DNA from: Candidatus Babelota bacterium
GTDB lineage: Bacteria > Babelota > Babeliae > Babelales > Babelaceae
Length of the DNA: 29,748 bases
Reading direction: 5' to 3'
NCBI GenBank assembly: GCA_003174035.1
Contig: PRDV01000017.1
Span: 1-29,748 of the forward strand
Position 1 is the stretch's first letter, and each line of letters begins with the position of its first letter. Below, piece by piece: positions 1-27,682 of this stretch. The notes under the pieces are model-generated. The model did no database searches. It worked only from the letters and a program-made list of their open reading frames with translations, and was not told the origin of the DNA. The position numbers were made by a program, and so were the translations under genes.

Positions 1-1394
1 CCATGAGCTTGCTTAGTAAAATCTATCTCCGGACTATCCTCTAATAGATTAAGAAGCATGGCAAGATCAAACTCCCCCTCATCGTCGGTACAGTATGTTG
101 TAAACTTAGGTTCGAGAAACGACCAATCTTCTGGATCCAGGGCTTCCATAAGCGCTGTTCTTCCAAATATTTCCTCGTTTATATCTTCGTTTATATCACA
201 CTTCCCATATTCGCATAACATTCTCATTATACCCCAACGCTTATAATGAGCGGCAACGCAAAGTGCTCCATACGTATTTATGTCAGGGTGATCCAACAGA
301 ACTCGCACTATAGAGGGCCAACCAAATCGAATTGCCTCCAAAAGAGCTGTCCATATTTGATTTTCAATCCAACAATCCTCATCTACTTTAATATCTTTAT
401 GCTTTAAAAGAGATTGTACGAGCTCTAAATCACCCGACCTAACCGCTAACATGAGTGCTGAATAATTGTGTATTTCATCAGCATTTATCTGAATTCCAGG
501 AACAAGGAGAAGTCTTTTTACACAGTTTCTAAAGTCTATTGGTTTATTGACATGCAGCAAAGAAGCACCATGGCAAGCAATAATTAGTGGATTCCAGCCC
601 CTGTGTGAACTTTTATTAATCAAAATCCCCTTCATTGAAAGCAATTTCTCTACTGATTTTTCACAGCCACAAAAACATGCCCACCAGAGTAATGTTCCTT
701 CTTCATCGCTTGCATTTATATCGATCTCGTGCTGATGATCGACATAAAATTGGGTGCATCTCTGTATCAATTGAACAAGCAAAGAATAATGACGATATTT
801 GTCTGCTTCACGAAACAGCGAAAAGCGCTGGTTTTCATCAATAAAAATCTTATCATCAAACTTTATATAGTTCTCGATAATCTGTACTGCTTTTGTGTAA
901 TCATGTGTCTCATAATGACACCATTTCGCAATACAGTAGTGTTGCAAACCACAGTATTGTTCATCACATTCCGTTAATGAAGCCTCATGTAATTTGGCAA
1001 CGAGCTTTAATATCTCAAATCTATAACGCAAATCAGGAGCAGCTTCTTCAGGCAATCTTGAAATTTTCTTGAAAATTCGCAATGCAATTTCACGAAATTT
1101 TTTACTCGTGGTTAACATACTATAGAGCTTATTATAATCTTCAAAAGAATTACATGCATATAAGGATTTATAAATACCTTCTTCGATAATAACCTCCTGA
1201 AGCTCGGGAAGAAGCTTCTGAAAGCATTGAAAATCTTTTAGACCCACCCGTTTGCCTGGCCCACTTTCTTGCGCTGTTATTTCGCGACCTCGTTTGAGCC
1301 CTTGCTGAGCTTGTTCTTGTTCTTTGCTTTCCGATGCTTGTAACGACATTATTGTCAGCATTGATAATGCTAGAAAGATCACATCCAATTTCAT
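1..1394 (-). CDS. Secreted ankyrin-repeat protein with N-terminal F-box-like segment; runs off the left edge (3' end missing)
   Basis: Absent from the ORF track (no stop in window). Manual translation is open from ATG 1394 (GAAAGG upstream) to position 1. It reads MKLDVIFLALSMLTIMSLQA (signal-like), then FQKLLPELQEVII...MLTTSKKFREIA, then ankyrin-like units: GTLLWWACFCGCEKSVEKLL, GWNPLIIACHG, YSALMLAVRSGDLELVQSLL, WTALLEAIRFGWPSIVRVLL, GALCVAAHYKRWGIMRMLC, GRTALMEAL. Confidence 0.85.
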   Translation of the reverse strand, partial: MKLDVIFLALSMLTIMSLQASESKEQEQAQQGLKRGREITAQESGPGKRVGLKDFQCFQKLLPELQEVIIEEGIYKSLYACNSFEDYNKLYSMLTTSKKFREIALRIFKKISRLPEEAAPDLRYRFEILKLVAKLHEASLTECDEQYCGLQHYCIAKWCHYETHDYTKAVQIIENYIKFDDKIFIDENQRFSLFREADKYRHYSLLVQLIQRCTQFYVDHQHEIDINASDEEGTLLWWACFCGCEKSVEKLLSMKGILINKSSHRGWNPLIIACHGASLLHVNKPIDFRNCVKRLLLVPGIQINADEIHNYSALMLAVRSGDLELVQSLLKHKDIKVDEDCWIENQIWTALLEAIRFGWPSIVRVLLDHPDINTYGALCVAAHYKRWGIMRMLCEYGKCDINEDINEEIFGRTALMEALDPEDWSFLEPKFTTYCTDDEGEFDLAMLLNLLEDSPEIDFTKQAH

Positions 1395-1697
1395 GGTAAA
1401 CAGCCTTTCGGATACGCTGATCGTTAAGAATATCGTGATTTAGCATATTATTTATTTGCTTGTAACAAATTACTATGCGATTTATTTATAATAATGACAA
1501 TTTATTTAATTTTGTCAAACAATTACACAAAAGCGTGAGGCGATATCATTCATAGTACGGAATATTAAGGAGTGGCTCTCTAAAACCATATAAAGAAATC
1601 TCCGGCTCCTCTAACTCTCAGAATCCTCTACCAATTATTGACCGCGCTCGTTTCAAAGTACTAACTTGCTTATAATGACCAAACAAGGAGAGTACCC

Positions 1698-3233
1698 ATG
1701 CATGTTATTTTCACACTCATAGTAGCACTGACCATACCCGCGACCCAAGCGCAGCAAAAAAGGAACAATACCTCCAAAAAGCCCAATATTCTCGTCATCA
1801 TGGGTGACGATATAGGGATTGCCAATATCAGTGCTTATAATAATGGCCTTATGGGGTACAAGACAAGCAATATTGACAGCATAGCAAAGCAAGGTGCGCT
1901 CTTTACTGACTTTTATGCTCAACAAAGCTGCACGGCAGGTCGTGCCGCTTTCATTACTGGGCAATCCCCCATTCGTACCGGTCTTACGAAAGTAGGCTTA
2001 CCGGGGTCAGATCTTGGCATTAGAAAAGAAGATCCAACGATCGCCGAACTGCTTAACCCGTTAGGCTATACCTGCGGACAGTTTGGGAAAAATCATCTTG
2101 GCGACCGCGATAAAATGCTACCTACAGCACACGGATTTGCCGAGTTTTTTGGCAATCTCTATCATTTAAATGCTGAAGAAGAGCCTGAAAATCCGGACTA
2201 TCCTAAAAATCCTGCTTTCAAGAAAAAGTTCGGTCCTCGAGGAGTGATTCATAGCTTTGCTAATGGCAAAATTGAAGATACGGGCCCACTCACTAAAAAA
2301 CGCATGGAGACAATTGATGAGGAGTTTCTGAAGGAAGCTAAGCGTTTCATCAAGGATGCTGCTCAAGCTACTATACCGTTTTTTGTATGGTTTTGTACAA
2401 CGAGAATGCACATTTGGACGCATCTTAAAAATAGTTCCCGAGGAAAAACAAAATACGGTGTTTATGCTGACGGTCTCATCGAGCATGACGGGCATGTCGG
2501 CATATTACTCAAACTACTTAAAGAGCTGGGAATCGAAGACAATACTATTGTCGTTTACACCACGGACAATGGCCCCGAGGTTTTCAGTTGGCCGGATGGC
2601 GGCATGACGCCCTTTCGAGGAGAAAAAGATACCAATTGGGAAGGCGGATTTCGCGTTCCCTGCCTTATCAAGTATCCAGGCGTTATCAAACCGGGCACCG
2701 TATTCAATGACATTGCCTCACTTGAAGACTTTCTACCAACGTTCTTAGCCGCGGCAGGAATAGCAGATATTAAGCAACAATTGCTTAAAGGATTTAAAGT
2801 TGGAACAACAACCTATAAAGTACATCTTGATGGTTACAATCTCCTGCCTTTTTTTAAAGGCCACGAAAAAAAATCACCTCGCAAGGACTTCTTGTATTGG
2901 AACGATGAGGGTGAATTGACCGCTTTACGCTATGATGATTGGAAAATAGTCTTTGCTGAACAGCGAGCACGTGGCCTTGATGTGTGGCAAGAGCCTTTTG
3001 TACCGTTACGCTTACCAAAACTCTTCAACCTGCGCTCGGATCCGTTTGAAAGAGCAGATCGCGATGCCATTGGTTATTCAAAATGGCGTATTGAGCATGC
3101 TTTTGCCCTCGTACCGGCACAAGCCTATGTCAAAAAATGGCTGGAAACATTTAAAGAGTTTCCTCCACGCCAAAAGCCTGCAAGCTTTAGCATACAAAAG
3201 ATCATGGAGAAACTCACAGCTACGAAAGATTAA
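1698..3233 (+). CDS. Arylsulfatase-family (formylglycine-type) sulfatase with signal peptide
   Basis: KPNILVIMGDDIG N-terminal motif, QQSCTAGRAAFITG signature (C-x-A-x-R), GKNHLG, YTTDNG, WEGGFRVP, FNLRSDPFE. AAGGAG RBS upstream. Hydrophobic N-terminus ending ATQA. Confidence 0.92.
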   Translation: MHVIFTLIVALTIPATQAQQKRNNTSKKPNILVIMGDDIGIANISAYNNGLMGYKTSNIDSIAKQGALFTDFYAQQSCTAGRAAFITGQSPIRTGLTKVGLPGSDLGIRKEDPTIAELLNPLGYTCGQFGKNHLGDRDKMLPTAHGFAEFFGNLYHLNAEEEPENPDYPKNPAFKKKFGPRGVIHSFANGKIEDTGPLTKKRMETIDEEFLKEAKRFIKDAAQATIPFFVWFCTTRMHIWTHLKNSSRGKTKYGVYADGLIEHDGHVGILLKLLKELGIEDNTIVVYTTDNGPEVFSWPDGGMTPFRGEKDTNWEGGFRVPCLIKYPGVIKPGTVFNDIASLEDFLPTFLAAAGIADIKQQLLKGFKVGTTTYKVHLDGYNLLPFFKGHEKKSPRKDFLYWNDEGELTALRYDDWKIVFAEQRARGLDVWQEPFVPLRLPKLFNLRSDPFERADRDAIGYSKWRIEHAFALVPAQAYVKKWLETFKEFPPRQKPASFSIQKIMEKLTATKD

Positions 3234-3328
3234 ACGCCATTCCTACATTTTTAGGATGAAAGCTTGTTTTAGACAAGTTGGCATTGGTACATTATAGAAA
3301 GAATTTTATTACAAAGTGATCTTACGCT

Positions 3329-4348
3329 ATGCCGATTAAAGCATTTTATAACAATATTTTTCTAGTTTCTATATTAATAGCTAGCCAAACTATAACCGCC
3401 GCGTCGGATTTTTATTATGGTGATTCTTCTGGCCTTTTCATCACACGATGGGCATTCCAATCTATTTGTGACCATATCTTTGACCCATACACCTCCGAAA
3501 TTGATTTGCCAACGTCATCAACTGGTGTAATTTTTGACGCGGATAAAGTGAAAGCTGGTGATAAAATTTTTGTGAGAAACGTGAAGCTCTTTTTTGAAAA
3601 ACTACACCCTTACATAAAACAACCCTATATTATGATTACTCATGGCGAAGCCGAAGCGACGGTAAAAGACGATTATTACCGTTATTTAGAAAATAACACA
3701 ATTATTGCTTGGTTTTCTATCCATCCACCACAAATTGGACATAAAAAATTTTTCCCGATCCCGCTGGGGATTCCATCATGGGCAACTTTTAAAGAATGGA
3801 CAAACGATGATGCGTATAATGAGCTTAATATTTATCTTAAGACCCTTCGTGAAGAAGTAAAAAAAACAAAACTGATGTATATGAATTTTTCCTTTAATAC
3901 CTCAGAAGACCGCCTTAATTCCAAAAACATTTTTTTAGGGTGGACTTTTAGTTCTTTCGCTCAAAATAAGCCTTTTGAAGAATATATGGAAGAAATGGCT
4001 GCTCACAAATTTGCGCTTTCACCGCGGGGACTTGGACCAGATTGCTATCGTACCTGGGAAGCTTTGTTAGTAGGCGTTATTCCAATAGTAAAAAGAGGCG
4101 AATTCGACACATGGGCAACCCCTAAAAACAAAAAAAGATTAAGGAGGGGATCCGAATTGGACAAATTGTATGAAGACCTGCCTGTGCTTATAATCGATGA
4201 TTGGAGTGAAATTAATGAAGCATTTCTGAATCATAAATATTTAGAGATTACCTCAAGAAGATATTCTATAGAAAAATTGTATACTAAGTATTGGCATAGT
4301 AAGATTCAAAATCTAAGGGATGAATTTTTACAACAAAGAAAATCTTAA
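3329..4348 (+). CDS. Exostosin/GT47-like glycosyltransferase (paralog 1) with signal peptide
   Basis: FALSPRGLGPDCYRTWEALLVGVIPIV...LYEDLPVLIIDDWSEI motif, plus the FITRWAFQSICDHIFDP motif shared with five other ORFs here. Confidence 0.7.
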   Translation: MPIKAFYNNIFLVSILIASQTITAASDFYYGDSSGLFITRWAFQSICDHIFDPYTSEIDLPTSSTGVIFDADKVKAGDKIFVRNVKLFFEKLHPYIKQPYIMITHGEAEATVKDDYYRYLENNTIIAWFSIHPPQIGHKKFFPIPLGIPSWATFKEWTNDDAYNELNIYLKTLREEVKKTKLMYMNFSFNTSEDRLNSKNIFLGWTFSSFAQNKPFEEYMEEMAAHKFALSPRGLGPDCYRTWEALLVGVIPIVKRGEFDTWATPKNKKRLRRGSELDKLYEDLPVLIIDDWSEINEAFLNHKYLEITSRRYSIEKLYTKYWHSKIQNLRDEFLQQRKS

Positions 4349-4402: not shown

Positions 4403-5062
4403 TTATTTGCCCGTGTCTAAAGGCTCAAAATACCAAAATGATTTCTCTCCTTTAACATTTCGATTTAAAATTTCGGCCGCCCTTCGAACTCCTTTTTCTA
4501 CACTTTCCCAATCCCAATCATCCCCACATATGATTGCATTTGCATTTAACTTCGGATACCAATTTATAATGTCGTTGAATACGGATTCTTCATCATGTGA
4601 TGCATCAATATAAATGAGGTCAGCTTTAATATTGAGAGCTTTCGCCGCTTCTTGTGTTCTCATTCTTATAGGTATAATTTTGTGAGCGATATCATGATGA
4701 ATAACATTTGATAGGAATTGCTGATAAATAGTGGGAATCTTCGATGCAACATCATCATCGATATTAACTCCTTGGCCAACCCAGCTATCTATTGCATATA
4801 CTGTACCTGATTCTTTCAGCTGAGAACCCATGTAGATTGCTGATTCTCCAAACCAGCTACCCAACTCAACAATAACCGTTGGTTGATATTTTACAATAAA
4901 CGCTCTCAAATATTCTTGATTTACCTTCCCAAACCATCCGTGTAAGAACTCTGGCAGTAGCTTAACAGATTTGTAAGGTTCAGATAACTCTTTTGCGTCG
5001 ACATGAAATGCACATTGCAAACCAAGTAGCAACACTACAACATTTCTAATTTTCAATAACAT
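4403..5062 (-). CDS. Class I SAM-dependent methyltransferase (Methyltransf_24-like) with signal peptide
   Basis: IVELGSWFGESA motif I, YAIDSW, LIYIDASHDEESV, IICGDDW. N-terminus MLLKIRNVVVLLLGLQCAFHVDA. Confidence 0.85.
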   Translation of the reverse strand: MLLKIRNVVVLLLGLQCAFHVDAKELSEPYKSVKLLPEFLHGWFGKVNQEYLRAFIVKYQPTVIVELGSWFGESAIYMGSQLKESGTVYAIDSWVGQGVNIDDDVASKIPTIYQQFLSNVIHHDIAHKIIPIRMRTQEAAKALNIKADLIYIDASHDEESVFNDIINWYPKLNANAIICGDDWDWESVEKGVRRAAEILNRNVKGEKSFWYFEPLDTGK

Positions 5063-5140: not shown

Positions 5141-6157
5141 TCATGAATTAGCTTTGGATTCGGCTTCCATTTTTACCCACGCCTCGGGCTTGTCCCAACT
5201 GCCCTCCCACCAATGTATTGCTGCAGATTCGGGCCGCCGCGTTGCCTGTTTTAGTTTTTCAAATCGTTCTTCGCTATTTGGCAAGTCAGTATAGAGATTT
5301 CCATATATGAGCGGCGATAAGGCATAGAAAAACGTTGGGGGCAAAACTAAGTCGCAAAATCCCTTATTAGCATGTAATAAAATCATTTTTGAAAAGAGAC
5401 CCGGTCCTCTATTAATGACATTGCCAACAAACCCTTTCGAATCGGATAGAGGTGTTGCTTCTTTCAAACTATCAATGTATCCTTTTAATATTGGATGGGA
5501 TCTAATAGATCCAATTATACCATTACCAATTTGAAATTCGCTAATATCAACAGGCTGTATGCCTGCGTAAAAATCATACTTTTTATGTAACAAATTAAAG
5601 ATCTCAGGCTCTAGACACTCAAAATCGGTATCAAGATAAACTCCTCCATATCTATGCAAAATTTCTGCACGAAAAATATCTGCTCGAATACCAGCGTTTT
5701 GTTCTTTGAAATAAAGCTCCTTATTTTCTAGGCCAAATTCTTCAGCATCTTTATCAGTCCACAATTTATATTCCCAACCCGGCAAAGATTGCCAAGTCTT
5801 CTGCCATTTTTTATATTTTTCAGGAAACGGTTTACCGCCGACCCAAATTTGATGAATAATGGGTGGTATTCTATAATTCTCGGAGATCGAATCCGCAGCT
5901 GGGCTATTCTCTTGATACATTTTTTTACATAAATTAACAAGATCAATTCCAGAGTAAGGACGAATATATTTCCAAAAAGAATCATTTGGCGAGGTCATAC
6001 GCTTTTGCATTTTACGGTAAAATTTATTCATGTAGGGGTCATCTTTACCCATCGATCTGTCAAAATCAACAGCCATCACAGCCCTATTGAAGGCATCAGT
6101 ATTTGCAAAATTCAATATAAGCAAAAAATATACACCAAGATTAAATAATAGCTTCAT
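5141..6157 (-). CDS. GT32-like DXD glycosyltransferase (Gly_transf_sug/OCH1 type) with signal peptide
   Basis: IPPIIHQIWVG, WEYKLWTD, RADIFRAEILHRYGGVYLDTD, AIHWWEGSW. ATG 6157 (AGGAG upstream) is preferred over GTG 6163. Confidence 0.85.
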   Translation of the reverse strand: MKLLFNLGVYFLLILNFANTDAFNRAVMAVDFDRSMGKDDPYMNKFYRKMQKRMTSPNDSFWKYIRPYSGIDLVNLCKKMYQENSPAADSISENYRIPPIIHQIWVGGKPFPEKYKKWQKTWQSLPGWEYKLWTDKDAEEFGLENKELYFKEQNAGIRADIFRAEILHRYGGVYLDTDFECLEPEIFNLLHKKYDFYAGIQPVDISEFQIGNGIIGSIRSHPILKGYIDSLKEATPLSDSKGFVGNVINRGPGLFSKMILLHANKGFCDLVLPPTFFYALSPLIYGNLYTDLPNSEERFEKLKQATRRPESAAIHWWEGSWDKPEAWVKMEAESKANS

Positions 6158-6914
6158 AAGCACTCCTTTCTATCAATGCATCAGTTTTTATGTTTATCCT
6201 TTGGAAACATTCCATTTTTTTTTGAAAGTTCAGAATTCCACGATACGTGTTAAGTGCATCGATAGCTTTTTCGAAATCCATCAAACTTATTTGTGATGTA
6301 TGTTCTCTCAAAGCCGCCAATTTCAATTCCATACAATCTGAAATTTCTAATTTATGAGTTATGATTTGAAGAGGAGTCCAAACCTCATACCCGAGTAGGA
6401 GGGGAACTTCCCATCCGAATTTTCCTTCAGCCGATTTCTGGATGGCACGCAGAACTATCCAATGTGTATTTATATGATCTTTGTGGCCATCTACTGCGTG
6501 CGGTGCATAAACAAGTTCCGGACGATATTTTACTATCAATTGAGTCACCTTTTCTATATTCTCATTTGTGGGCGCCAATTTACCATCGGGCTCTCTTAAA
6601 AAAAGGAGCTCATTAATGCCAATTTTTTGGGTCGCGCGCTTCGCTTCCTCTTCCCGAATGGCTACTAATTCCGCGGGAGTCCCGTCCCAGTATGCCGCAT
6701 CTCCCGACGTCATGTAAACAATAATAACTCTTTTGCCATTTTGCACGTGCTTAATAAGTGCGCCACCACAACCCAGAATATCATCATCCGGATGGGGCGA
6801 AAAAACCATGACAGTTTCAATCACTGCTAATTCATCCGGTTGTAACTGATTTTGGCTCAAAACTTCATGAACACAAAATGGAAGCATGAGCACAATTTTG
6901 AGTATATTTTTCAT
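6141..6914 (-). CDS. PIG-L/LmbE family N-acetyl-sugar deacetylase with signal peptide
   Basis: FSPHPDDDILGCGG, YMTSGD, REEEA, DGHKDH, K-x-x-AL-x-x-H-x-SQ zinc-deacetylase motifs. Confidence 0.9.
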   Translation of the reverse strand: MKNILKIVLMLPFCVHEVLSQNQLQPDELAVIETVMVFSPHPDDDILGCGGALIKHVQNGKRVIIVYMTSGDAAYWDGTPAELVAIREEEAKRATQKIGINELLFLREPDGKLAPTNENIEKVTQLIVKYRPELVYAPHAVDGHKDHINTHWIVLRAIQKSAEGKFGWEVPLLLGYEVWTPLQIITHKLEISDCMELKLAALREHTSQISLMDFEKAIDALNTYRGILNFQKKMECFQRINIKTDALIERSAYEAII

Positions 6915-6952: not shown

Positions 6953-8239
6953 CTACCTTGATTCATTCGAAATCACACTATATTTTTTAAATAATGCTTG
7001 GGATCTGGTCATGATATATTCATTTGTTATAATATCCCGATCCCCCAAAATAACTTTTTTGGGCTTAAAAAGATTAAGAAATTTGGGTTTTAGATTTTTC
7101 CATAAGTACTGCTGTACCCATATTTTACCTTCTTTTGCCTTGTCTTTGTAATAGGTATAATTTTTATAAACTTCTCTTAAAGCTTTTTGAACATCTTCAC
7201 ATTTACAATCGAATTGATACCCACAATCTGCTTTACCATAGTGGCCTAAATAATCTGCAGGTAGTTTTATATCTGACGGAACCGGATAAACGTACCCACT
7301 ATCAATAATCGTTTTGTGCGCGGTATTATTTGACAATATACAAGGAATACCAGCTGCCAATGCTTCTCGAGGAGTCATTGAGAAACCTTCACCCTTAGAT
7401 ACAAGTACATAACAATCTAAAGATCGGTAAAAATCCAGACATTCAGCCTCAGAAGAATTGAAATGTACTAACTCAATTGATGTATTATTAAATTGCTCTA
7501 ATTGTTGTCGCATAGCATTGAGATAAGTCTTATGTGCCCACTTCCCATGTAGTTTCAGCTTTACATTCGGTTCATGAGCAAATTCCTTATGAAATGCCTC
7601 TATGAGCAAATGTTGATTTTTCCTTGGGAATAACACTGAATTACAGCCGAAAACAAAATCTCCCGATTCTTTTTTTAGAGACGTCTCTTTTAACAATTCC
7701 TCGATAAAAACACCGTGAGGGAGAGCAAAAATGGGGATACTAACTCCCGAATTTGCATATACTTCTTGATAAAATTCATCGGGGACTACCACAAGATCAA
7801 ATTTTTCATTAAGAATGCTTACCCATTCTTGCGGAATTGCCGTGCTTTCAATCATGGAATAAGCAATTTTGATGTAACTCGTTTCCGGCACATAATCACT
7901 AAAGTTAATCTTGTTCCAGTAGACTGAATAATTTAATATCGCAATGTTTCCCGGCGTCTTATCAGGATTTTCTATGATGCTTTTTAAATCCGGAGAAATG
8001 CCATTTAAAATATAATCACCGGGAACCCTTGAGTGATTAATATGTAATTCGTTTTTTACGATGTCTGCGACACCTAATGATAGTCGACCAAGGCTATCGG
8101 TTACATCAATGGGCCCAACAATGGTCAAATCTATATGCGAAGGGGTAAATTCTCTTGCATTACAATAATTGGATAGCAAAATTAATACGACGCAGAGCAT
8201 CTTTGCAGTCTCAGTATTTAATTGCATTTGAACTTTCAC
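6953..8239 (-). CDS. GT4-like (GT-B) glycosyltransferase, paralog A
   Basis: FPRKNQHLLIEAF, DCYVLVSKGEGFSMTPREALAAGIPCI (EGF-x7-E). N-terminal hydrophobic stretch MLCVVLILLSNYCNA. The exact start (GTG 8239 or a downstream ATG) is uncertain. Confidence 0.82.
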   Translation of the reverse strand: MKVQMQLNTETAKMLCVVLILLSNYCNAREFTPSHIDLTIVGPIDVTDSLGRLSLGVADIVKNELHINHSRVPGDYILNGISPDLKSIIENPDKTPGNIAILNYSVYWNKINFSDYVPETSYIKIAYSMIESTAIPQEWVSILNEKFDLVVVPDEFYQEVYANSGVSIPIFALPHGVFIEELLKETSLKKESGDFVFGCNSVLFPRKNQHLLIEAFHKEFAHEPNVKLKLHGKWAHKTYLNAMRQQLEQFNNTSIELVHFNSSEAECLDFYRSLDCYVLVSKGEGFSMTPREALAAGIPCILSNNTAHKTIIDSGYVYPVPSDIKLPADYLGHYGKADCGYQFDCKCEDVQKALREVYKNYTYYKDKAKEGKIWVQQYLWKNLKPKFLNLFKPKKVILGDRDIITNEYIMTRSQALFKKYSVISNESR

Positions 8240-9917: not shown

Positions 9918-9953
9918 ATGCCAGATTTAAATTTATCATGTATGGGAGACTCA

Positions 9954-14456: not shown

Positions 14457-14463
14457 GGATGCT

Positions 14464-15840: not shown

Positions 15841-15841
15841 T

Positions 15842-19301: not shown

Positions 19302-20254
19302 CTATTCCCCTTATACTCTTCTAAAAATGCTTGCCTCACCTCTTCTATCTTTTTCCACCAATATTCCATAAATAACTTCTCGATAGTGAATTTTTTGGAT
19401 GTCATTTCATGCCACTTCCTTTCAAGATACTCTTCGGTAATTTCTTTCCAATCGTGGATGATAAGAATCGGCAAATCCTCATATAAAGGGTCTAAATGCG
19501 ATGTGTGCACTATTGGAATCGACCCTACAAGCATCGCTTCCCAATTTCTATACGAATCAGGGCCATACCCTCGTGGCGAAAGCGTAAATTTAAAATGAGC
19601 CATTTCTTTCATGTAATCAAGAAACGGCAATCGCTTTGCTTTATAGCAAAAAGGCAGCGTATCAAAGAGATCATCCACTTCTGCCCTCTCAGGTTTCTTT
19701 CCCAAAAGATCTCCATAGTTACTGTAAAGAAGATTTTCTTTAGGAATAGCTCTCAGGCGAGCAAAAAGCTGAGTAAGCTCTGCACGGGGTTCATAATATT
19801 TTTTATCCTGATAAATCCCCAGGGGAAGCATGAAAAATTTGGGGTGAGTTCGAGCACTCGCATGCACACTAAACCATGCAATAATTTTTTCATCATCAAG
19901 ATAATCAATACATTCCTCTTTAACAGTATCACGATATTCCCCAGCAGTTACCATAATATAGGGGTGCTTAATTTTATGATGAAGCTTTTTATGGAACAGC
20001 GCCACATCGCGGACGAAAATAATATCTCCTGGTCGTACATCAGCAGGATTGAGCGTTACCCCATCATGCTTTGATGGCCACAAAAATTTGTTCGTACGTG
20101 GATCAAATACATGATGACAGATTTTTTGAAAACCCCAGCGATTTACATAATTTTCTGAGTAAATTCCATAAAAGATATGTGAATTTTCATTATAATGGGC
20201 GTGAGCATAAAAACCCATTAAAAGAATAAATGCAAGTAATGTTGCGAGCTTCAC
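19298..20254 (-). CDS. Exostosin/GT47-like glycosyltransferase (paralog 4)
   Basis: FTLSPRGYGPDSYRNWEAMLVGSIPIV; GTG start; MKLATLLAFILLMGFYAHA signal; ATGA overlap with paralog 3. Confidence 0.7.
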   Translation of the reverse strand: MKLATLLAFILLMGFYAHAHYNENSHIFYGIYSENYVNRWGFQKICHHVFDPRTNKFLWPSKHDGVTLNPADVRPGDIIFVRDVALFHKKLHHKIKHPYIMVTAGEYRDTVKEECIDYLDDEKIIAWFSVHASARTHPKFFMLPLGIYQDKKYYEPRAELTQLFARLRAIPKENLLYSNYGDLLGKKPERAEVDDLFDTLPFCYKAKRLPFLDYMKEMAHFKFTLSPRGYGPDSYRNWEAMLVGSIPIVHTSHLDPLYEDLPILIIHDWKEITEEYLERKWHEMTSKKFTIEKLFMEYWWKKIEEVRQAFLEEYKGNR

Positions 20255-20375: not shown

Positions 20376-21455
20376 GTGCTCATGTCTTCTAGGAAATTGT
20401 ACAATAACGCGGTCTCTCTTATATTGATCGTTTCATTGAACGTGCAATATAATACATGTGCGGGTAAGAATATATTTGATGAGCCTCAAGCTTCATGTAA
20501 TTTTATTATACGGTGGGCATTTGCAAAATTATGTAATCATTTCTATGACCCGAACACCGTGCCCTGTTCCTGGCCTACAAAGCCTCAAGGTATAAGCTTT
20601 CATCCCTCTGATATTAACGAAACCGATGTCATTTTTGTCCGGAATACTAAACGCTTTTTTAGTGAAATGCATCCCCATATTAACCACCCTTACATTATAC
20701 TAACTCATGGTGATTATCGCGATACCTGCGATGAGAATTTTTTCCATTACCTTGATGATCCAAAAATAATTGCCTGGTTGAGCATACATCCCTTTAAAAA
20801 GGCTCATAAAAAATTCGTACCTCTTCCTCTTGGCATTAGGCAAGAACACGCCTATTTTGAAAACAAAGAGATTTATAACGAGTTTTTCAAAAATTTACGA
20901 GAGCAAGCATCTAAGGATAAACTTCTTTGTTTAAATTTTGACCCAGAAAAAAATCAACTACGAGAGGCAATAATCGAAAAATTTTCAAGTAAGCCTTGGT
21001 GTTGCAGGCAAGAGAAACTACCATTTATTCAATACATGAAAGAAATGTCCACCTATAAATTTGTATTTTCACCACGAGGCTGGGGCCCAGACTCCTATCG
21101 GACTTGGGAAGCTCTTCTCGTAGGAACCATCCCTATCGTAAAAAGAGGCGAATTTGAAATTATTGACATTGTAAAGGGAATAATACCAGAATCTCTGGAC
21201 CAATCAGTTGACTCTCAGTTAGACACCCTCTATGCCAATCTTCCAGTACTCCTGATTGACGATTGGGCAAACATCACTGAAGAATTCCTCAAGCAGAAAT
21301 ATATTGAGATGACCAAAAAAAATTATGATTTAGCATCGCTCTACATGGAATACTGGGTCAGCAAAATAGATGCTATAAAAGAACATCATTATCAAGATAA
21401 AATCGATAAAATGAGTATCTTTAGCCAGCTGCGCAAAGAACATTCTGAGGAATAA
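20376..21455 (+). CDS. Exostosin/GT47-like glycosyltransferase (paralog 5)
   Basis: FVFSPRGWGPDSYRTWEALLVGTIPIV, FIIRWAFAKLCNHFYDP. Start is GTG 20376 or ATG 20382. The 3' end overlaps the convergent gene by 35 nt. Confidence 0.7.
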   Translation: MLMSSRKLYNNAVSLILIVSLNVQYNTCAGKNIFDEPQASCNFIIRWAFAKLCNHFYDPNTVPCSWPTKPQGISFHPSDINETDVIFVRNTKRFFSEMHPHINHPYIILTHGDYRDTCDENFFHYLDDPKIIAWLSIHPFKKAHKKFVPLPLGIRQEHAYFENKEIYNEFFKNLREQASKDKLLCLNFDPEKNQLREAIIEKFSSKPWCCRQEKLPFIQYMKEMSTYKFVFSPRGWGPDSYRTWEALLVGTIPIVKRGEFEIIDIVKGIIPESLDQSVDSQLDTLYANLPVLLIDDWANITEEFLKQKYIEMTKKNYDLASLYMEYWVSKIDAIKEHHYQDKIDKMSIFSQLRKEHSEE

Positions 21456-21894
21456 CACTCAGAACTTTCTTTTTTGAAAACTCCTTCTCTTCACCATTTT
21501 CAGCAACGATAAAAGTGAAATAGAAAGGGATCTCTGCTTTTTCGCCTTCGGATACATGTAATTCAGGATCAACTTTAAATGTTACCGCTATGCGCATGGT
21601 ATTCCCTGCTGAAAAATCATAGATTTCTCCATAGATGCGTTTAAAATCTTTAGCGTAGCTGATCGGCAAACTGTTTTTAGCTTCTTTGGCAGATACGAAC
21701 GTTAAGCCCCTTGGTACATAACAATAAAAACAAAGCATTTCAGTGCAGCATGCGCCAGGATTTGAAACATTAACCACATATTCGATTTCATCTTGAAGCT
21801 TTGCTTGCTGTGGTCCATTAACCCTGACAGCCACTTCAGCATATAGTCCTGTAGGTATAACCATAAAATTCATCAAAAGCATTATCTGTTTCAT
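21421..21894 (-). CDS. Small exported DUF11-like (Ig-like, OmcB-repeat-type) domain protein, copy A
   Basis: Signal peptide ending GLYA, then VRVNGPQQAKLQDEIEYVVNVSNPG...VPRGLTFVSA...G-x-T-x-x-I-x-V-T-F-K-V pattern. AGGGGG RBS. Confidence 0.55.
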   Translation of the reverse strand: MKQIMLLMNFMVIPTGLYAEVAVRVNGPQQAKLQDEIEYVVNVSNPGACCTEMLCFYCYVPRGLTFVSAKEAKNSLPISYAKDFKRIYGEIYDFSAGNTMRIAVTFKVDPELHVSEGEKAEIPFYFTFIVAENGEEKEFSKKKVLSVIPQNVLCAAG

Positions 21895-22039: not shown

Positions 22040-23158
22040 ATGAATGTCAAATTATTTTGTAAACAAGTATTTCTACTATGTATAATGATTATTCCCACTG
22101 GGTGCTTTTCAAGCTCAGTTACCTATAACTTCAGCGGTGGTCGCTTTGGTGATAATCTTGTAGCCTACTGCCATGCGCGATGGCTTTCTTATAAGTTTGG
22201 CTTAAATTTCCTCTATCGTCCTTTTGAATATTCAGATCAATTGAAAATGCATACGATACATAAACCATTTGATCTTGATCATCAAACCCAATTTAAAAAG
22301 GTTGTAGAATTTCCGGAAGAAAGTGGGCATCAATCGTATCTTACATTTGATCAAACTGAAGAGATACTCTATGTTATTCCTTATTTTCCTGAATGCAAAG
22401 ATGATATTAAACGGCGCAATTTCTTCCATTTTGATATCGATTGGCGTGATCAAGGATTTAACCAACTTATCAAACAAGAAATTGCTAGCATAAATCCTAT
22501 CAGCCTCGTCGATCTTCCCAAAGATCGTATTGCTCTTGCGGTCCATGTTCGCACAGGCGCAGGCTGGGATAGGGTTATCCAAATCCGATCTCAGGCAGAT
22601 GAAGTTAATAATGCTGCCATGGAAGATGAATTAAAAAAATTGATTGAAATCAAACGCACCTCTCGGGGAACTGACCAAGCTGCTAATGTATCCACTTCCA
22701 AGTTTGCTGATAAAAAACATCCGCTTAAATTTCCGCCAGATAGTTTTTATATCGAACAAATAAAGAAAACTTCAGAACTTCTAAGCGATTTGCCACTCTA
22801 CGTGCACATATTCACTGATAGTTCTAATCCCGAAGAGTTAATGAACTACTACAAAGCGGCAGTTAACAAACCTAACATCACCTATGGATGCCGCAAAGAA
22901 GGAAATAGACATGATCAAAACGTGCTAGACGATTTTTTTAATTTATTACGCTTTGACGGCATTATTAGAGGGGAATCAAACCTTGCAATTATGGCTTCAA
23001 GAATAGCTCACTATAAAATTGATATTTTTCCCACAGATTATCTGTGGCATCGAAACAGACTGGCCATTACCGATGTACAAACCACTATCCAGGAGTGCAT
23101 CGAATTGTACCACAAGAACCCGGGAACAAGTATTTTTGAGTGTACAAGAAGTAACTAA
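22040..23158 (+). CDS. Fucosyltransferase-fold (GT11/GT23-like) glycosyltransferase with signal peptide
   Basis: GGRFGDNL N-terminal motif, AVHVRTG (motif I), VHIFTD (motif II), DDFFNLLRFDGIIRGESNLAIMA (motif III). ATG 22040 (AAGGA upstream) is preferred over TTG 22022. Confidence 0.55.
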   Translation: MNVKLFCKQVFLLCIMIIPTGCFSSSVTYNFSGGRFGDNLVAYCHARWLSYKFGLNFLYRPFEYSDQLKMHTIHKPFDLDHQTQFKKVVEFPEESGHQSYLTFDQTEEILYVIPYFPECKDDIKRRNFFHFDIDWRDQGFNQLIKQEIASINPISLVDLPKDRIALAVHVRTGAGWDRVIQIRSQADEVNNAAMEDELKKLIEIKRTSRGTDQAANVSTSKFADKKHPLKFPPDSFYIEQIKKTSELLSDLPLYVHIFTDSSNPEELMNYYKAAVNKPNITYGCRKEGNRHDQNVLDDFFNLLRFDGIIRGESNLAIMASRIAHYKIDIFPTDYLWHRNRLAITDVQTTIQECIELYHKNPGTSIFECTRSN

Positions 23159-23226: not shown

Positions 23227-23811
23227 TTATTCTAACACTTTGACCATGATGTATCTTTTACCATTCCATGGCCTAAATCCTTCACTAGCATATAAATTGC
23301 GAGCAACCTCAAAGTTCCCTCCCCAAACGTTCAACATCACGGTTGAGATCCCATATGACTTAAAAATCTGGTATGCTTCATGCAATAGTTTCTTACCATA
23401 CCCCTGTCGATAAAATCTCGGCTCAATTTTTAGCAATTGAATGAAACCATAAGGTTCTTTCCCTGAGGACCATGCTGACTTCTCTAACACAAAAATCTTA
23501 ATCTGCCCTATCAGAACGTTGTCTTTGTTTGAAAGCAAAATTTTTAACATTTTCCCATGCTCGGTGAAATAGGCCTTGTCTTTGGGAAGATAAATTGTTT
23601 GAGGTACATCTATGGTGCAGATAAGCCTATTTCCATTTTCAACTTCACGTATTTTTGCTTCATTAGGATTATACATAGCTGTTACATCACGATCACCCTG
23701 CTCCAATTTACTCAATTCCAAAGCATTCACGTTAGGTAATGCTATACAAAAGGTATTATACATAATCAGACTAATCACAATAAACAGAGATGATCTTTGC
23801 ACAATATTCAT
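23227..23811 (-). CDS. GNAT family acetyltransferase with signal peptide
   Basis: FIQLLKIEPRFYRQGYGKKLL (motif A, R/Q-x-x-G-x-G), VMLNV...NFEVARNLYASEGF (motif B). Confidence 0.82.
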   Translation of the reverse strand: MNIVQRSSLFIVISLIMYNTFCIALPNVNALELSKLEQGDRDVTAMYNPNEAKIREVENGNRLICTIDVPQTIYLPKDKAYFTEHGKMLKILLSNKDNVLIGQIKIFVLEKSAWSSGKEPYGFIQLLKIEPRFYRQGYGKKLLHEAYQIFKSYGISTVMLNVWGGNFEVARNLYASEGFRPWNGKRYIMVKVLE

Positions 23812-23850
23812 ACAGAGAATTCCTTTTCTGTTAAAAATTAAGTTTTTATT

Positions 23851-24007: not shown

Positions 24008-24055
24008 AAAAATATCACGTTATTTTCTTTCTCAGATAGGGCTGAGCACAAGATA

Positions 24056-24841
24056 TTATTTCTTTGCTAGTAACTTGGAAACACTATCAGCAAGCGGACC
24101 AAATGGTTTTGCTGGCTGCCGCTCCTTATCAGATAATTGTATTCGTACCTTCTTTTTTCCCCATTGATACTTGCTATCGAGATAAAAGACATAAGCTATA
24201 TCAAACCAATCCTTTCCATAAAATTCAGCCAAAAATAAGTATGGATTATTTGGTCCTTTTACCTCCAGGGCTCCGAATGTATAATTTTTTAAAGGATATA
24301 ATTCATCCTCCGTAATGTACCATGTTTCTCCCGCCCTCTTAAACTCATTTTGCGCCTTCACGTCAGCATAAATCAATTTATTGCCCCTTTTTGTAGTAAA
24401 GAGAATATCAAGAATCGGAGCATGACCGTAATTTCTGTTATATTTGCTTTCATTTGGTTTTATGGTATAAAAATTTACTTCTTCCTTATATAAGCTATAT
24501 CCCAATTTTTCGAAATGCGCTTTCAAAGAATACACTAAATCTTTCTGAGTTTCTGGTACACAAATGTCAATATCAATGTCCCAAGGAATTATTCCCTTAT
24601 GCCTCACTGCCCCTAACAATGTACCGCTTTCAATAAAGTAATCTATATTAAACGCTGAAAATAGTTCATGAGTGTCTTTCAACATTTGATACAAAGTAAG
24701 AATGAATTTTTCATCTGTCAATTTAACTAGAGTACCATTAACATCCATTATGTTTTTTTCATAACTTGGTTGTGTGGCAAAACCGAGTGACGAATTTAAA
24801 CTACAAAATAAGAGTAAAAAATAGGTGTTTTTTGTCTTCAT
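24056..24841 (-). CDS. LicD/fukutin family nucleotidyltransferase-fold phosphotransferase with signal peptide
   Basis: YFIESGTLLGAVRHKGIIPWDIDIDI, LDILF, LYPLKNYTFGALEVKGPNNP...YGKDW. Confidence 0.88.
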   Translation of the reverse strand: MKTKNTYFLLLFCSLNSSLGFATQPSYEKNIMDVNGTLVKLTDEKFILTLYQMLKDTHELFSAFNIDYFIESGTLLGAVRHKGIIPWDIDIDICVPETQKDLVYSLKAHFEKLGYSLYKEEVNFYTIKPNESKYNRNYGHAPILDILFTTKRGNKLIYADVKAQNEFKRAGETWYITEDELYPLKNYTFGALEVKGPNNPYLFLAEFYGKDWFDIAYVFYLDSKYQWGKKKVRIQLSDKERQPAKPFGPLADSVSKLLAKK

Positions 24842-24967
24842 AAGATTCCTTTCATTTTACGTAAGCAAAGTCCCACAACTCAATTGCTATGATAATTTTA
24901 GCTTGCTCAAGACCTGCTCATCAACAATTCCTGTAACAAGCACAAATCCTCACCAACATCACTGTGG

Positions 24968-25741
24968 TTAACCCATACATTTTTTATTGGCGAAGAGCAC
25001 ATTCCCGTACCATCGTCCTTTTTTGGTACTTGAACGCGATAGAGCCTGTGTTTCATCAAAATCTAAAGCTATAGGTTCAAAACCGTTAAGTGCCATCCAA
25101 TTTTTAACATCGCGGTAGAGGGCTTGCCCTTCATAGGCCTCCACAAATTCCACTTCCATATAGACAAGCTTTACCGAAGGCAAAATGGTAGTGGCATGTT
25201 GAAGAGCTGCCAGCTCGTGACCTTGCATATCAAGCCACATAAGATCTATTTTCGAAATCATCTTTTCTTTGACCCATAAATCAATCGTGGTTGTAGTAAC
25301 GGCAATCTGCGTAGGAAACACCACCGACTTGCTAAAATTTAAATGCTCCTTTGGTGACAATAGAGAACCTGATGCACTAGGCTTTCCCGGCTTAGTTGTA
25401 CGTTCTGACACAAAAAAAGTGGCGGTTCCTTGTCTATCTGAGAGAGCTAAAGGATAGGTTATAATGTTTTTGAACGAAGAAGTATTTTTTACTAAATTGG
25501 CGTAATGCTCTGGCACTGGCTCAAAAGTATGAATTTCAGAATCTGGCCACAATTTAGCCATTTGCTTAGCGGTATTTCCCGTAAGCGCACCCGCTTCAAG
25601 AATTACGGGATTTGTAGGTAGTAAATTCTTTAACAGAGAAAACACCCCGGCCGTGTCGCGGGAAATTTGTATCATTGGCCAAACGTTCCCCGATACCATC
25701 GTTAAAAAGGCTATAGTTAAGATATTCTGTCTTATCATCAT
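24968..25741 (-). CDS. FkbM family (Methyltransf_21) methyltransferase with N-terminal signal/anchor
   Basis: VILEAGALTG, IHTFEPVP, TTTIDLW, KIDLMWLDMQGHELAALQ, VYMEV, GNVLF. Confidence 0.85.
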   Translation of the reverse strand: MMIRQNILTIAFLTMVSGNVWPMIQISRDTAGVFSLLKNLLPTNPVILEAGALTGNTAKQMAKLWPDSEIHTFEPVPEHYANLVKNTSSFKNIITYPLALSDRQGTATFFVSERTTKPGKPSASGSLLSPKEHLNFSKSVVFPTQIAVTTTTIDLWVKEKMISKIDLMWLDMQGHELAALQHATTILPSVKLVYMEVEFVEAYEGQALYRDVKNWMALNGFEPIALDFDETQALSRSSTKKGRWYGNVLFANKKCMG

Positions 25742-26069
25742 AAAATTCCTTCGCCAAACGCATTAATTGTTACACAACCCACTTTGGGATCATTCAGGTT
25801 AAAACCTTAGGGCTAAAGCTATTAGCACAACTAATATATCCTTTCTTTAACACACAGGTTCATTATATTTTATTGAGGGCGATCCGTTCAATAGAAAAGT
25901 TGTTTTTATTTGGACACTTTTGAATCAAAATTTTACAAACAAGTATCCTAACTTCTTTATTTTCTTGAAAGCCGAGCAAGATACCACCAAGCCATCATCA
26001 CCATTTTAAGACAATCTAAAAATCCAATGAGCTTTCTAAGCAGGGTTTTTCGAGCGACATAGAAAATTC

Positions 26070-26099
26070 TTGACTTGAGCAATTATAGAATAATAGTAT
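26070..26099 (+). promoter_or_regulatory. Candidate sigma70 promoter for GT47 paralog 6
   Basis: TTGACT-18 nt-TAGTAT. Confidence 0.4.
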
Positions 26100-26179
26100 A
26101 AATCAACGACAAAAATGTAGAACGAAACTTTTTAATTAGTATGAAAAGAGAAATATTACCAACCACAGAGGGGATCTCT

Positions 26180-27127
26180 ATGAATATATATTATATTTTA
26201 GCACTACTAGCTTTTTCATCACTTATTGGAAATTCGTCATATGCACGATTTGAAGAATCTTCAGCACTCTATCATGGAACTTATAGTGAGAATTTTGTAA
26301 CGCGCTGGGGCTTTCAAAGTAAGTGCGATCATTGTTTTGATCCGCGCACAAAATGGCCAACTGTGGGATTAAACAACTTGAACCCGCAAGCAGTAAAGGC
26401 TGGGGATATTATTTTTGTACGAGATGTAAAGACTTTTTTGAAAACAGTACATCCTAAAATTCTAAACCCCTATATTATGATTACAGCGGGAGACGTGAAA
26501 GATCGGACGCGAGAAATATTTATGCAAAGCCTTAATAGTCCAAAAATTATTGCCTGGTTTTCAGTGCATGCTTGTACACTGTCACACCACAAGTTCCACC
26601 CCATTCCGTTAGGCATTATTCAGACACGCGCACATTATGAAAATCGTTCGGAGATGACCAATTTTTTTGCACAGCTTCGTCAAAACGAAAGAAACAAATT
26701 ACTCACTATGAACTTTTTAATGCAGAATAAACCCTCTCGCACGGAGGTCTACAAACTGTTTGAAAATGCCTCTTTTTGCGATAAGGCCCATACCCTTCCA
26801 TTTCTAGATTATTTGAAACATATGGCACAATTTAAATTCGCGCTCTCACCCCGTGGCGTAGCGATTGACACCTATCGCACCTGGGAAGCAATGTTGGTGG
26901 GCACTATACCAGTCGTGGAAAGTTCGCAACTAGACGGACTATACGCAGATTTACCTATTCTTATTATAAAAGATTGGAATGAGATAACACCATCATTTTT
27001 AGAACAAAAATATAAAGAAATGACCTCAAAAAAATATAATATTGAAAAGTTATTTATGGAGTATTGGTGGAAAAAAATTGAAGATGTCCAGAGAACATTT
27101 CTCAATAAGATAGCTCAACCAAAATAA
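26180..27127 (+). CDS. Exostosin/GT47-like glycosyltransferase (paralog 6)
   Basis: FALSPRGVAIDTYRTWEAMLVGTIPVV, FVTRWGFQSKCDHCFDP. ATG 26180 (GAGGGGA RBS) gives the signal MNIYYILALLAFSSLIGNSSYA. Closest by eye to paralog 4. Confidence 0.7.
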   Translation: MNIYYILALLAFSSLIGNSSYARFEESSALYHGTYSENFVTRWGFQSKCDHCFDPRTKWPTVGLNNLNPQAVKAGDIIFVRDVKTFLKTVHPKILNPYIMITAGDVKDRTREIFMQSLNSPKIIAWFSVHACTLSHHKFHPIPLGIIQTRAHYENRSEMTNFFAQLRQNERNKLLTMNFLMQNKPSRTEVYKLFENASFCDKAHTLPFLDYLKHMAQFKFALSPRGVAIDTYRTWEAMLVGTIPVVESSQLDGLYADLPILIIKDWNEITPSFLEQKYKEMTSKKYNIEKLFMEYWWKKIEDVQRTFLNKIAQPK

Positions 27128-27146
27128 TGGATACCCATTGATAGCT

Positions 27147-27198
27147 AAAATTCGTGTGAGCATTGAGATACATTAATCCCAATACTCATACGAATTTT
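27147..27198. terminator. Long intergenic hairpin between convergent genes (bidirectional terminator or palindromic element)
   Basis: AAAATTCGTGTGAGCATTGAGAT-acatta-ATCCCAATACTCATACGAATTTT, 23-bp arms with 3 transition mismatches. Confidence 0.6.
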
Positions 27199-27202
27199 TT
27201 AA

Positions 27203-27682
27203 TTAATTAACCAATGGTGATCGGAAAATTGTTATGACTTTTTTTGCATTTTTTTCTTCGATTCCTGGAATTAAGGCTATTGCTTTAATCGTTACACTTT
27301 TCAAATCATTTTCTCTATCCAGAATAGGGGCCTTAACCGTCAGATATAAATAAACTTTTTCATTCACATCGAGCGATTCTAGAAACCCACTTACAGAGAT
27401 CCCACCGTTCACCAGCCGATCAGATACTACTAATCTATCAGAAGTAGCAGAACCATAAACCATGCCCTGGCCGGCAAGTTCATCAATCTGAAGAGTAATC
27501 TGCTTAAGTATGTTCTTAGATCTATTCTGTATGCTAATCGTATAAGTAGTCTCTTGACCCTCTTCTAAAATGGAATCCCCTGTTATCATAACCTGGGCTG
27601 TTTTAGCAAAAAGCTCAATCACGCTTACACCTAGAAAGCATAATACGATTGCTAAAAATATTGATTTTAAATCGCGTTTCAT
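27203..27682 (-). CDS. Small exported DUF11-like domain protein, copy B
   Basis: ATG 27682 with GGAGGA RBS; signal MKRDLKSIFLAIVLCFLGVSVIELFA; then VMITGDSILEEGQETTYTISIQN...GMVYGSA...LDVNEKVYLYLTVK. Confidence 0.55.
   Translation of the reverse strand: MKRDLKSIFLAIVLCFLGVSVIELFAKTAQVMITGDSILEEGQETTYTISIQNRSKNILKQITLQIDELAGQGMVYGSATSDRLVVSDRLVNGGISVSGFLESLDVNEKVYLYLTVKAPILDRENDLKSVTIKAIALIPGIEEKNAKKVITIFRSPLVN

Follow-up and report, generated by a model that had tools for sequence, protein, structure and literature searches.

In the textbook view of glycan synthesis, bacteria carry out nucleotide-sugar chemistry in the cytoplasm and pass the lipid-linked products outward. The collagen-repeat proteins of the Bacillus BclA exosporium nap and of the Mimivirus fibrils are encoded beside dedicated glycosyltransferases (GTs). 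Dependentiae (TM6) is a phylum of obligate intracellular protist parasites. Its member Chromulinavorax destructans replicates in the cytoplasm, has no lipopolysaccharide (LPS) genes, and has signal peptides predicted on 44% of its coding sequences (PMC6561590). Chlamydia trachomatis secretes glycogen enzymes that run on host UDP-glucose (PMC4829429), and the giant virus PBCV-1, a chlorovirus, encodes A075L, a UDP-xylose beta-xylosyltransferase that is the founding member of CAZy family GT114 (PMC11571054). Here we report an island (~28 kb) of GT and glycan-tailoring genes in a metagenome-assembled genome (MAG) of Candidatus Babelota (GCA_003174035.1), in which every non-transposase protein carries a signal-like N-terminal leader. 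The island lies on contig PRDV01000017.1 (C29), which was analysed whole (29,748 bases, hereafter the window) and is the longest of the 94 contigs of the MAG. The explanation that we consider best, and that we hold with middling confidence, is that these are exported enzymes using host-made donors, that their targets are probably exported bacterial fibre proteins, and that the island serves an obligate intracellular Dependentiae bacterium as its main toolkit for glycosylation other than that of peptidoglycan.

The MAG (G000) comprises 1.11 Mb in total and is 70.8% complete and 0.25% contaminated. A 16S rRNA search of it gave no match. Its RpoB is 71–72% identical to that of 'Vermiphilus pyriformis' and about 45–50% identical to everything else, and G000 was placed in Dependentiae because of this closest match; an initial annotation, made from the DNA alone, had guessed at a protist-associated intracellular bacterium, correctly as this placement indicates. 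Homology searches with the window proteins returned Dependentiae-type relatives only, plus one Chlamydiia match, and no paralogues of these proteins were found elsewhere in G000. Literature searches for Dependentiae or Babela together with glycosyltransferase found nothing relevant. Comparisons were made with four same-genus relatives, G141 (a complete genome), G137, G048 and G098, which score 91–97% complete, and for some genes with seven genomes of the genus.

By eye, a basic and then hydrophobic N-terminal segment is present on 25 of the 25 non-transposase proteins of the window, as the initial annotation had claimed. Leaders were also called by a heuristic home-made rule, which is not a signal-peptide predictor: an open reading frame (ORF) was tagged if an uncharged run of at least 11 residues, starting by residue 25, held an 8-residue window with a mean Kyte-Doolittle hydropathy of at least 2.4. 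A looser hydropathy score (11-residue window, first 45 residues) was dropped; it tagged 46–58% of all ORFs. The strict rule tagged 22 of the 26 window ORFs, transposase pieces included, against 312 of 788 (40%) in the remaining G000 and 46 of 183 (25%) in 195 kb of Escherichia coli. The window is thus enriched in leaders (Fisher p = 4.6e-6), and it is the most leader-dense contig of G000. Its rule misses have K/R inside the hydrophobic h-region (PIG-L, GT4 b) or an over-long ORF start (PP-loop paralogue 3), and the leader of the ankyrin ORF was judged by eye only, as this ORF runs off the contig. A crude n/h/c parse of the 25 proteins gave h-regions of 7–20 residues in 24 (in the GT2-TPR protein it fuses the leader with the first strand), n-regions that are mostly net positive, and a small-residue -3/-1 site in 23, which bears out the earlier remark that most of these segments end in cleavage-like sites. 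A cleavable Sec (SPase I) signal peptide has a positive n-region, an h-region of 7–15 hydrophobic residues and small residues at -3/-1. Short h-regions and AXA-like sites give the leaders this anatomy, and their translocation and cleavage are predicted. Golgi-style long signal anchors, to which they had first been likened, were rejected because of h-region length.

The island encodes six GT114, three GT2 and two GT4 enzymes, one DXD GT and one fucosyltransferase-fold GT, together with two methyltransferases, a GNAT acetyltransferase, LicD, a PIG-L deacetylase, three PP-loop enzymes and a sulfatase. Pfam searches and translations agreed in general with the first ORF and family list, save for a GT47 label and one ORF called unknown. 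The features of the window are as follows ('rule' and 'parse' denote the two leader tests above).

3..1394, minus strand: ankyrin-repeat protein with leader (translation and parse); Pfam Ank_2 8e-22; off the contig end.
1698..3233, plus strand: Cys-type sulfatase with leader (rule); Pfam Sulfatase 1.2e-47, profile position 1 at residue 29.
3329..4348, plus strand: GT114 (A075L-like) paralogue a with leader; RXYLT1_C 4.7e-10; N/R/R donor residues invariant in the six-paralogue alignment.
4403..5062, minus strand: SAM methyltransferase (Methyltransf_24/CmcI-like) with leader (rule and parse); Pfam 2.5e-17.
5141..6163, minus strand: DXD glycosyltransferase (Gly_transf_sug/GT32-like) with leader (rule and parse); PF04488 1.4e-8, PF12919 4.4e-6.
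6141..6914, minus strand: PIG-L/LmbE-type de-N-acetylase with short leader; Pfam 4.2e-32, profile starts at residue 36.
6953..8239, minus strand: GT4 a with leader (rule); Glycos_transf_1 3.3e-18.
8494..9726, plus strand: GT4 b with weak leader, R inside the h-region (parse); Glycos_transf_1 9e-11; orthologues have N-terminal hydrophobic segments.
9954..11234 (ORF opens at 9918; likely start 9954), plus strand: GT2 with TPR and leader (rule and parse); Glycos_transf_2 5.3e-5.
11231..12073 (ORF opens at 11204), plus strand: GT2 a with leader; Glycos_transf_2 8e-15, profile position 2 at residue 33 of the long ORF.
12070..12996, plus strand: GT2 b with leader; Glycos_transf_2 4e-18; 4-nt overlap with the preceding gene.
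12993..14456, plus strand: PP-loop ATPase-like paralogue 1 with leader (rule); 44% identity to the paralogue at 14464-15840.
14464..15840, plus strand: PP-loop ATPase-like paralogue 2 with leader; motif residues kept in 51 homologues; AlphaFold2 (AF2) model of pLDDT 93.7 with weak PDB matches.
15842..17254 (ORF opens at 15731), plus strand: PP-loop ATPase-like paralogue 3 with leader (translation; parse with internal start).
17239..18228, minus strand: GT114 paralogue b with leader; RXYLT1_C 8.1e-8; alignment.
18240..19301, minus strand: GT114 paralogue c with leader; RXYLT1_C 1.2e-9; start overlaps the upstream stop by 4 nt.
19298..20254, minus strand: GT114 paralogue d with leader; phmmer match of residues 100-306 to PBCV-1 A075L (PDB 8q8i/8avq/8asa).
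20376..21455, plus strand: GT114 paralogue e with leader; Exostosin_GT47 7.1e-7, RXYLT1_C 1.2e-6; alignment.
21421..21894, minus strand: small DUF11-repeat-like protein with leader, candidate acceptor or surface protein; DUF11 7e-4 (below cut-off), TIGR01451 0.014.
22040..23158, plus strand: fucosyltransferase-fold GT with leader; AF2 pLDDT 89.3; PDB fold matches, no Pfam hit.
23227..23811, minus strand: GNAT acetyltransferase with leader (rule); Acetyltransf_1 3.3e-8.
24056..24841, minus strand: LicD-family phosphotransferase (cholinephosphotransferase-like) with leader; LicD 4.3e-16; NF045866 1.2e-15 (below cut-off).
24968..25741, minus strand: FkbM-type methyltransferase with leader (rule); Methyltransf_21 1.1e-18.
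26141..27127, plus strand: GT114 paralogue f with leader; RXYLT1_C 1.2e-10; alignment.
27203..27682 (ORF opens at 27775), minus strand: small leader protein, weakly DUF11-like (parse); TIGR01451 0.083; homologue in the G137 island.
28041..29710, minus strand: IS4-type transposase in two ORFs; DUF4277 3.1e-37, DDE_Tnp_1 3.2e-5; island boundary, outside the enzyme set.

The split of this IS4-family transposase, at the right edge of the island, suggests that it is probably disrupted.

Signal-like N-termini are common throughout this genome, and the initial annotation had cautioned that the leaders might be a genome-wide trait. The caution was apt in so far as about 40% of the G000 proteome is tagged, much as in Chromulinavorax, but such a background cannot account for 25 of 25. 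As a control, G000 was compared with nine E. coli regions, which gave 50 reciprocal best hits. Thirty-nine of them are expected to be cytoplasmic (including ribosomal proteins, RpoA/B/C, IF-2, NusA, aminoacyl-tRNA synthetases, DnaA, DnaJ, SecA, FtsA, MurA/B, GlmS/M and AtpD/G), and 10 usable ones are expected to be membrane or exported proteins. The rule tagged one of the 39, UppS, and nine of the 10 (SecY, secretin, prepilin peptidase, FkpA, BamA, FtsH, DacB, PstS and YegH). Leaders on every G000 protein are ruled out by the first of these figures; it also shows that housekeeping cytoplasmic enzymes do not share the leader frequency of the island, an equality that was to have told against the first interpretation. 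The UppS orthologue (G000 C55:2156-2968) has an N-terminal hydrophobic extension of ~26 residues, which may be a membrane tether. On another contig of G000, a cluster of leaderless GT2, radical-SAM-like, methyltransferase and FkbM-like genes (C15:5556-14184; one of 13 contig ORFs tagged) is either a conventional cytoplasmic pathway of G000 or part of a foreign contig. Applied to the colanic-acid and O-antigen clusters of E. coli, the rule leaves six of eight GT ORFs untagged; its other two calls, on WbbK and a WbbL fragment, are apparent false positives. By these sequence comparisons the leaders are selective, and the island is the extreme of a very large lineage-wide secretome, not a unique trait.

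By sequence, the leaders have been added to otherwise ordinary enzymes. A075L aligns to GT114 paralogue d from query residue 100 on, over the C-terminal two thirds only, and the Pfam profiles of GT2, PIG-L and sulfatase start at residues 29–36 of the window proteins. When the six GT114 paralogues are aligned, only the leader lacks conservation. The PHPDD motif is present in 124 of the 150 best PIG-L homologue representatives, about 15 of which, the closest, have leaders; 57 of the 124 start directly at this motif (1/57 tagged), and the N-extended homologues are mostly non-hydrophobic (15/59 tagged).

Synteny of the island extends, with rearrangements, to G141, G137 and G048, and 54 of the 62 full-length island homologues there (45–68% identity) pass the strict rule, the remaining eight being visibly signal-like. 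In the complete genome G141, the island holds every GT2 gene (five) and every GT4 gene (four). Relatives' islands add GT90, GT61, GT23-like and leaderless GT14 genes and further methyltransferases. Of 151 sampled Dependentiae genomes, 38 encode GT114 members (29 of 96 genera), and same-genus genomes of 1.7–1.9 Mb have 6–17 matches each. This conservation bears on the idea that the leaders are an artefact of over-extended ORF starts or of a hydrophobic bias of AT-rich N-termini. One gene caller did put the start of GT114 paralogue d at an internal Met, cutting off the leader (P0001), and the loose hydropathy score tagged about half of all ORFs, as given above. The orthologues nevertheless keep the leader anatomy with different sequences, start/stop overlaps of 4 nt between several window genes support several of the leader-including starts, and the same genome yields the low counts just given for housekeeping proteins and for contig C15; we regard an artefact as highly improbable.

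The paralogues first labelled GT47 belong to GT114 by their match to A075L. Paralogue d matches A075L (PDB 8q8i, 8avq, 8asa; phmmer E=7e-24) over query residues 100–306 and chain residues 68–280, and all six paralogues align to one another. The donor-binding residues of A075L, Asn148, Arg158 and Arg208 (PMC11571054), align with N179, R190 and R236 of paralogue d and are invariant in all six. In the HMMER alignment, which was made without structural superposition, the catalytic base Asp73 falls 1–2 positions off a conserved acidic residue (T-x-G-[E/D], position 106). Donor choice may differ among the six paralogues.

The three PP-loop paralogues and the 372-residue ORF 22040-23158, earlier called unknown, have no Pfam or NCBIfam family, and searches of PDB sequences with this ORF and the PP-loop protein likewise gave no match; their folds were therefore predicted. 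ORF 22040-23158 gave an AF2 model of pLDDT 89.3, and its top 46 Foldseek matches in PDB are all GDP-fucose fucosyltransferases, each of them FUT8, POFUT1, AtFUT1 or NodZ (probability 1.0, TM about 0.4); the Atlas lead is GT11. It is thus predicted to have the fold of the GDP-fucose fucosyltransferase superfamily (GT11/23/37/65). Its homologues number 238 cluster representatives at E <= 0.001, with a Chlamydiia member among them, and include fusions to FkbM and DXD-GT domains.

In PP-loop paralogue 2, S145, G147 and D149 of the SGGxDS motif are invariant in 51 homologues, as are C330, C343 and C346, and C340 is nearly so. The best PDB matches of its model are weak, mostly to PP-loop enzymes (probability up to 0.97, E about 1e-3), and include TtuA, GMP synthetase, ThiI and ArgG. 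The ORFs at 12993-17254 are predicted members of the PP-loop ATP pyrophosphatase superfamily, with an adenine-nucleotide alpha-hydrolase fold. These tandem paralogues belong to a large family (>100 cluster representatives) without a Pfam or NCBIfam model. For the Cys-type sulfatase (1698-3233), the island regions of three relatives gave no homologue, and the formylglycine-generating enzyme (FGE) was found in one of seven genus genomes.

Nucleoside diphosphate (NDP)-sugar synthesis, priming-transferase, Wzx and Wzy genes are all missing from the window, as stated at the outset, and this holds for the genus apart from GalU-like and GlmU genes. The Bac_transf priming transferase was found in none of five genomes (G000 and the four relatives); in the same five, the PF01370 epimerase/dehydratase was seen only as a G048 pseudogene, and no TPT-type transporter was found, the PF04142 and PF08449 families not being searched for. 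None of seven genus genomes gave Wzx (PF01943) or the Wzy_C/WaaL type (PF04932), with no specific search for ABC-type (Wzm/Wzt) exporters, and none gave LpxC. The sole NTP-transferases of the genus are GlmU and a ~300-residue GalU-like protein adjoining pheS, both leaderless, so that by gene content the genus makes UDP-Glc and UDP-GlcNAc in its cytoplasm. No route to GDP-Fuc or UDP-Xyl was found by gene content.

A UDP-glucose/GDP-mannose dehydrogenase (UGDH) is encoded inside the island of all four relatives, with a signal-like leader of ~22 residues before its GxGxxG motif:

G141:C1:455427-456806; G048:C2:712777-714153; G137:C1:339634-341085; G098:C118 (locus L114:1423-2835): UGDH with leader.

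Such a leader is sensible only where UDP-glucose and NAD+ are available at the destination of the enzyme. Nucleotide carriers of the NTT type are encoded in all seven genus genomes (two in G000), and host nucleotides must therefore cross the outer membrane into the periplasm.

These gene contents bear on two accounts in which the bacterium supplies its own donors. In one, the leaders are inner-membrane tethers or functionless, and the enzymes work at the cytoplasmic face in a conventional pathway that draws on UDP-Glc and UDP-GlcNAc and ends in an unrecognised carrier or exporter. The leaderless GalU-like and GlmU proteins would fit such a pathway, UppS is a cytoplasmic-face enzyme that also has a hydrophobic N-terminal extension in G000, and in every bacterium studied so far, cofactors such as NAD+, ATP and acetyl-CoA are found in the cytoplasm. 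Yet most of the h-regions are too short for a membrane span, the mostly positive n-regions imply that the N-terminus is in and the catalytic domain out, and cleavage-type sites are near universal in the parse. Moreover, priming transferase, flippase, polymerase and ligase were not found in five to seven genus genomes, a fucosyltransferase-fold enzyme and six GT114 are present without a route to GDP-Fuc or UDP-Xyl, and the sulfatase and the small DUF11-like proteins bear the same kind of leader. We consider this account rather unlikely. In the other, exported periplasmic enzymes are fed by the bacterium's own nucleotide sugars through an unrecognised transporter, and an exported UGDH diversifies them. 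The cytoplasmic GalU-like and GlmU genes and the leader-bearing UGDH speak for it, but the missing TPT-type transporter speaks against it, it leaves the supply of GDP-Fuc, UDP-Xyl and CDP-choline unexplained, an exported UGDH would be pointless if UDP-Glc were only cytoplasmic, and the scheme is energetically odd for a parasite that imports ATP. It seems to us improbable.

Export of enzymes that then use host donors, the explanation we prefer, would proceed as follows. Each enzyme would cross the inner membrane by means of a cleavable Sec signal peptide; SecA and SecY are encoded in G000, and SPase I in the three near-complete relatives (G141, G137 and G048). Their site of action would be the periplasm or the cell surface, or else the host cytosol if secretins or vesicles carry them there. 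Secretin genes occur in all seven genus genomes, in three tandem copies in most relatives with one found in G000, and secretins may offer the large secretome a way across the outer membrane:

G048:C2:591193-598449; G137:C1:256826-264201: tandem secretins (about 780–1020 residues); G000:C84:710-3448: single secretin.

The donors (UDP-Xyl, GDP-Fuc, UDP-sugars, CDP-choline, SAM, acetyl-CoA and ATP) would be made by the host; by gene content the bacterium cannot make most of the sugar donors, and for NTT import host nucleotides must already enter the periplasm. Because assembly would follow export, it would need no lipid carrier, flippase or polymerase. In its fullest form, this scheme has a whole Leloir-type pathway outside the cytoplasm, made up of soluble GTs that use nucleotide sugars, a nucleotide-sugar dehydrogenase (in relatives) and tailoring enzymes that depend on SAM, acetyl-CoA and ATP. 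All of its donors would come from the host cytosol by diffusion to the periplasm or cell surface, and a complex glycan of fucose/xylose type would be built stepwise on collagen-like fibres that had already been exported; such an 'outsourced Golgi' without lipid carrier, flippase or oligosaccharyltransferase is put forward only tentatively, as a possibility.

The likely acceptors are exported bacterial proteins, namely the collagen-like fibres of the relatives and the small DUF11-like proteins of the island, and they would be glycosylated after export because pre-glycosylated proteins could not pass SecYEG. Every collagen-repeat match in G141, G048, G137 and G098 sits at the island edge:

G141:C1:443111-446905; G048:C2:701072-704815; G137:C1:326661-334679; G098:C120:11044-11334: collagen-triple-helix-repeat genes.

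The encoded proteins have 1264 (G141), 1247 (G048) and 2115 (G137) residues, with signal-like N-termini in G141 and G048. In G000, the island contig ends on both sides.

The same acceptors help to weigh another account of exported enzymes, in which they are effectors that manipulate the protist by adding sugars, methyl or acetyl groups to its proteins or glycans or by removing sulfate from them, and no bacterial surface glycan is made. An ankyrin protein with the same type of leader lies in the window, and 78% of the ankyrin proteins of Chromulinavorax destructans have signal peptides and are taken as secreted effectors (PMC6561590). In addition, the DXD GT (5141..6163) has a weak match to the TcdA/TcdB glycosyltransferase domain, and many of the families are of eukaryotic Golgi or endoplasmic reticulum types (RXYLT1_C here; GT90, GT61, GT23 and GT14 in relatives). 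Known effector GTs, however, act singly and add one sugar, whereas >13 GTs with methyl, acetyl, phosphocholine and amidation-type tailoring enzymes suggest the stepwise assembly of a complex glycan. The island is also linked, in all four relatives, to the sole genes for collagen-like exported proteins, and small DUF11-like leader proteins lie inside it. Host modification is in our view an unlikely explanation of the island as a whole.

Several points weigh against the reading that exported enzymes use host donors on bacterial fibre proteins. The 40% background of signal-like N-termini in G000 makes the leader alone weak evidence for a special design. We know of no bacterial periplasm in which acetyl-CoA, NAD+ or ATP is usable. 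Localisation and passage of the outer membrane are predictions from sequence. The links to the collagen-like gene, UGDH, GalU and SPase I come from relatives, these four not being found in G000, which is 71% complete. The leaderless GT2/radical-SAM cluster on C15 means that some glycan chemistry would be cytoplasmic, and several Branch/GT14 (Core-2/I-branching) genes of ~250 residues in the relatives' islands are leaderless and open with the first beta-strand:

G141:C1:469047-469799; G048:C2:706449-707213, 729598-730347 and others: leaderless Branch/GT14 genes.

Of the exported toolkit on host donors proposed in the initial annotation, the leaders have proved real, enriched and conserved, and donor and carrier genes were not found; export, donor use and target stay at the level of prediction, and UDP-Glc and UDP-GlcNAc are, by gene content, made in the cytoplasm.

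If true, this reading would add a third route to bacterial surface and protein glycosylation, enabled by life in the eukaryotic cytosol, would explain how Dependentiae without LPS clothe themselves, and would tie protist-parasitic bacteria to giant viruses via shared enzyme families such as GT114. As material for testing, the island also offers leaders that can be assayed for export, the six GT114 paralogues, and two new families, one with the fucosyltransferase fold and one of PP-loop proteins. Like the Wzx/Wzy or ABC loci of bacteria, such as the rfb and colanic-acid clusters of E. coli, it groups GT2 and GT4 genes with acetyl- and methyl-tailoring enzymes, but those clusters also have genes for NDP-sugar synthesis, priming transferase, flippase and polymerase, none of which was found here, where every enzyme has a leader. 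The fibres of BclA and Mimivirus are glycosylated inside the cytoplasm of the producer or the host, whereas here the enzymes, and the fibre in relatives, bear Sec leaders.

Chromulinavorax destructans belongs to the same phylum and shares a similar leader background, Sec and secretin genes, nucleotide import and the lack of LPS genes (PMC6561590), but its paper does not discuss glycosylation enzymes; here a donor-dependent toolkit stands at about 100% leader density. In Chlamydia trachomatis, too, an intracellular bacterium exports sugar-polymer enzymes that are normally cytoplasmic and so uses a host nucleotide sugar, as the gene content suggests here. The chlamydial enzymes leave by type III secretion signals and make a storage homopolymer from a single donor, UDP-Glc (PMC4829429); the present island has >20 enzymes with Sec leaders, would draw on many types of donor, and probably makes a heteroglycan linked to protein. 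The giant-virus systems (PBCV-1 A075L, GT114 and partner enzymes; PMC11571054, PMC9614988) are alike in that the six GT114 are A075L homologues with the donor-binding Asn/Arg/Arg kept, and in that the parasite's own soluble Leloir GTs and methyltransferases would decorate its own structural protein without endoplasmic reticulum, Golgi or lipid carriers. They differ in that the acceptor here, a collagen-like fibre, is a candidate drawn from relatives, and in that the viral enzymes are leaderless and act directly in the host cytoplasm, whereas each enzyme of the island has a Sec-type leader, because it would first have to leave the bacterial cell.

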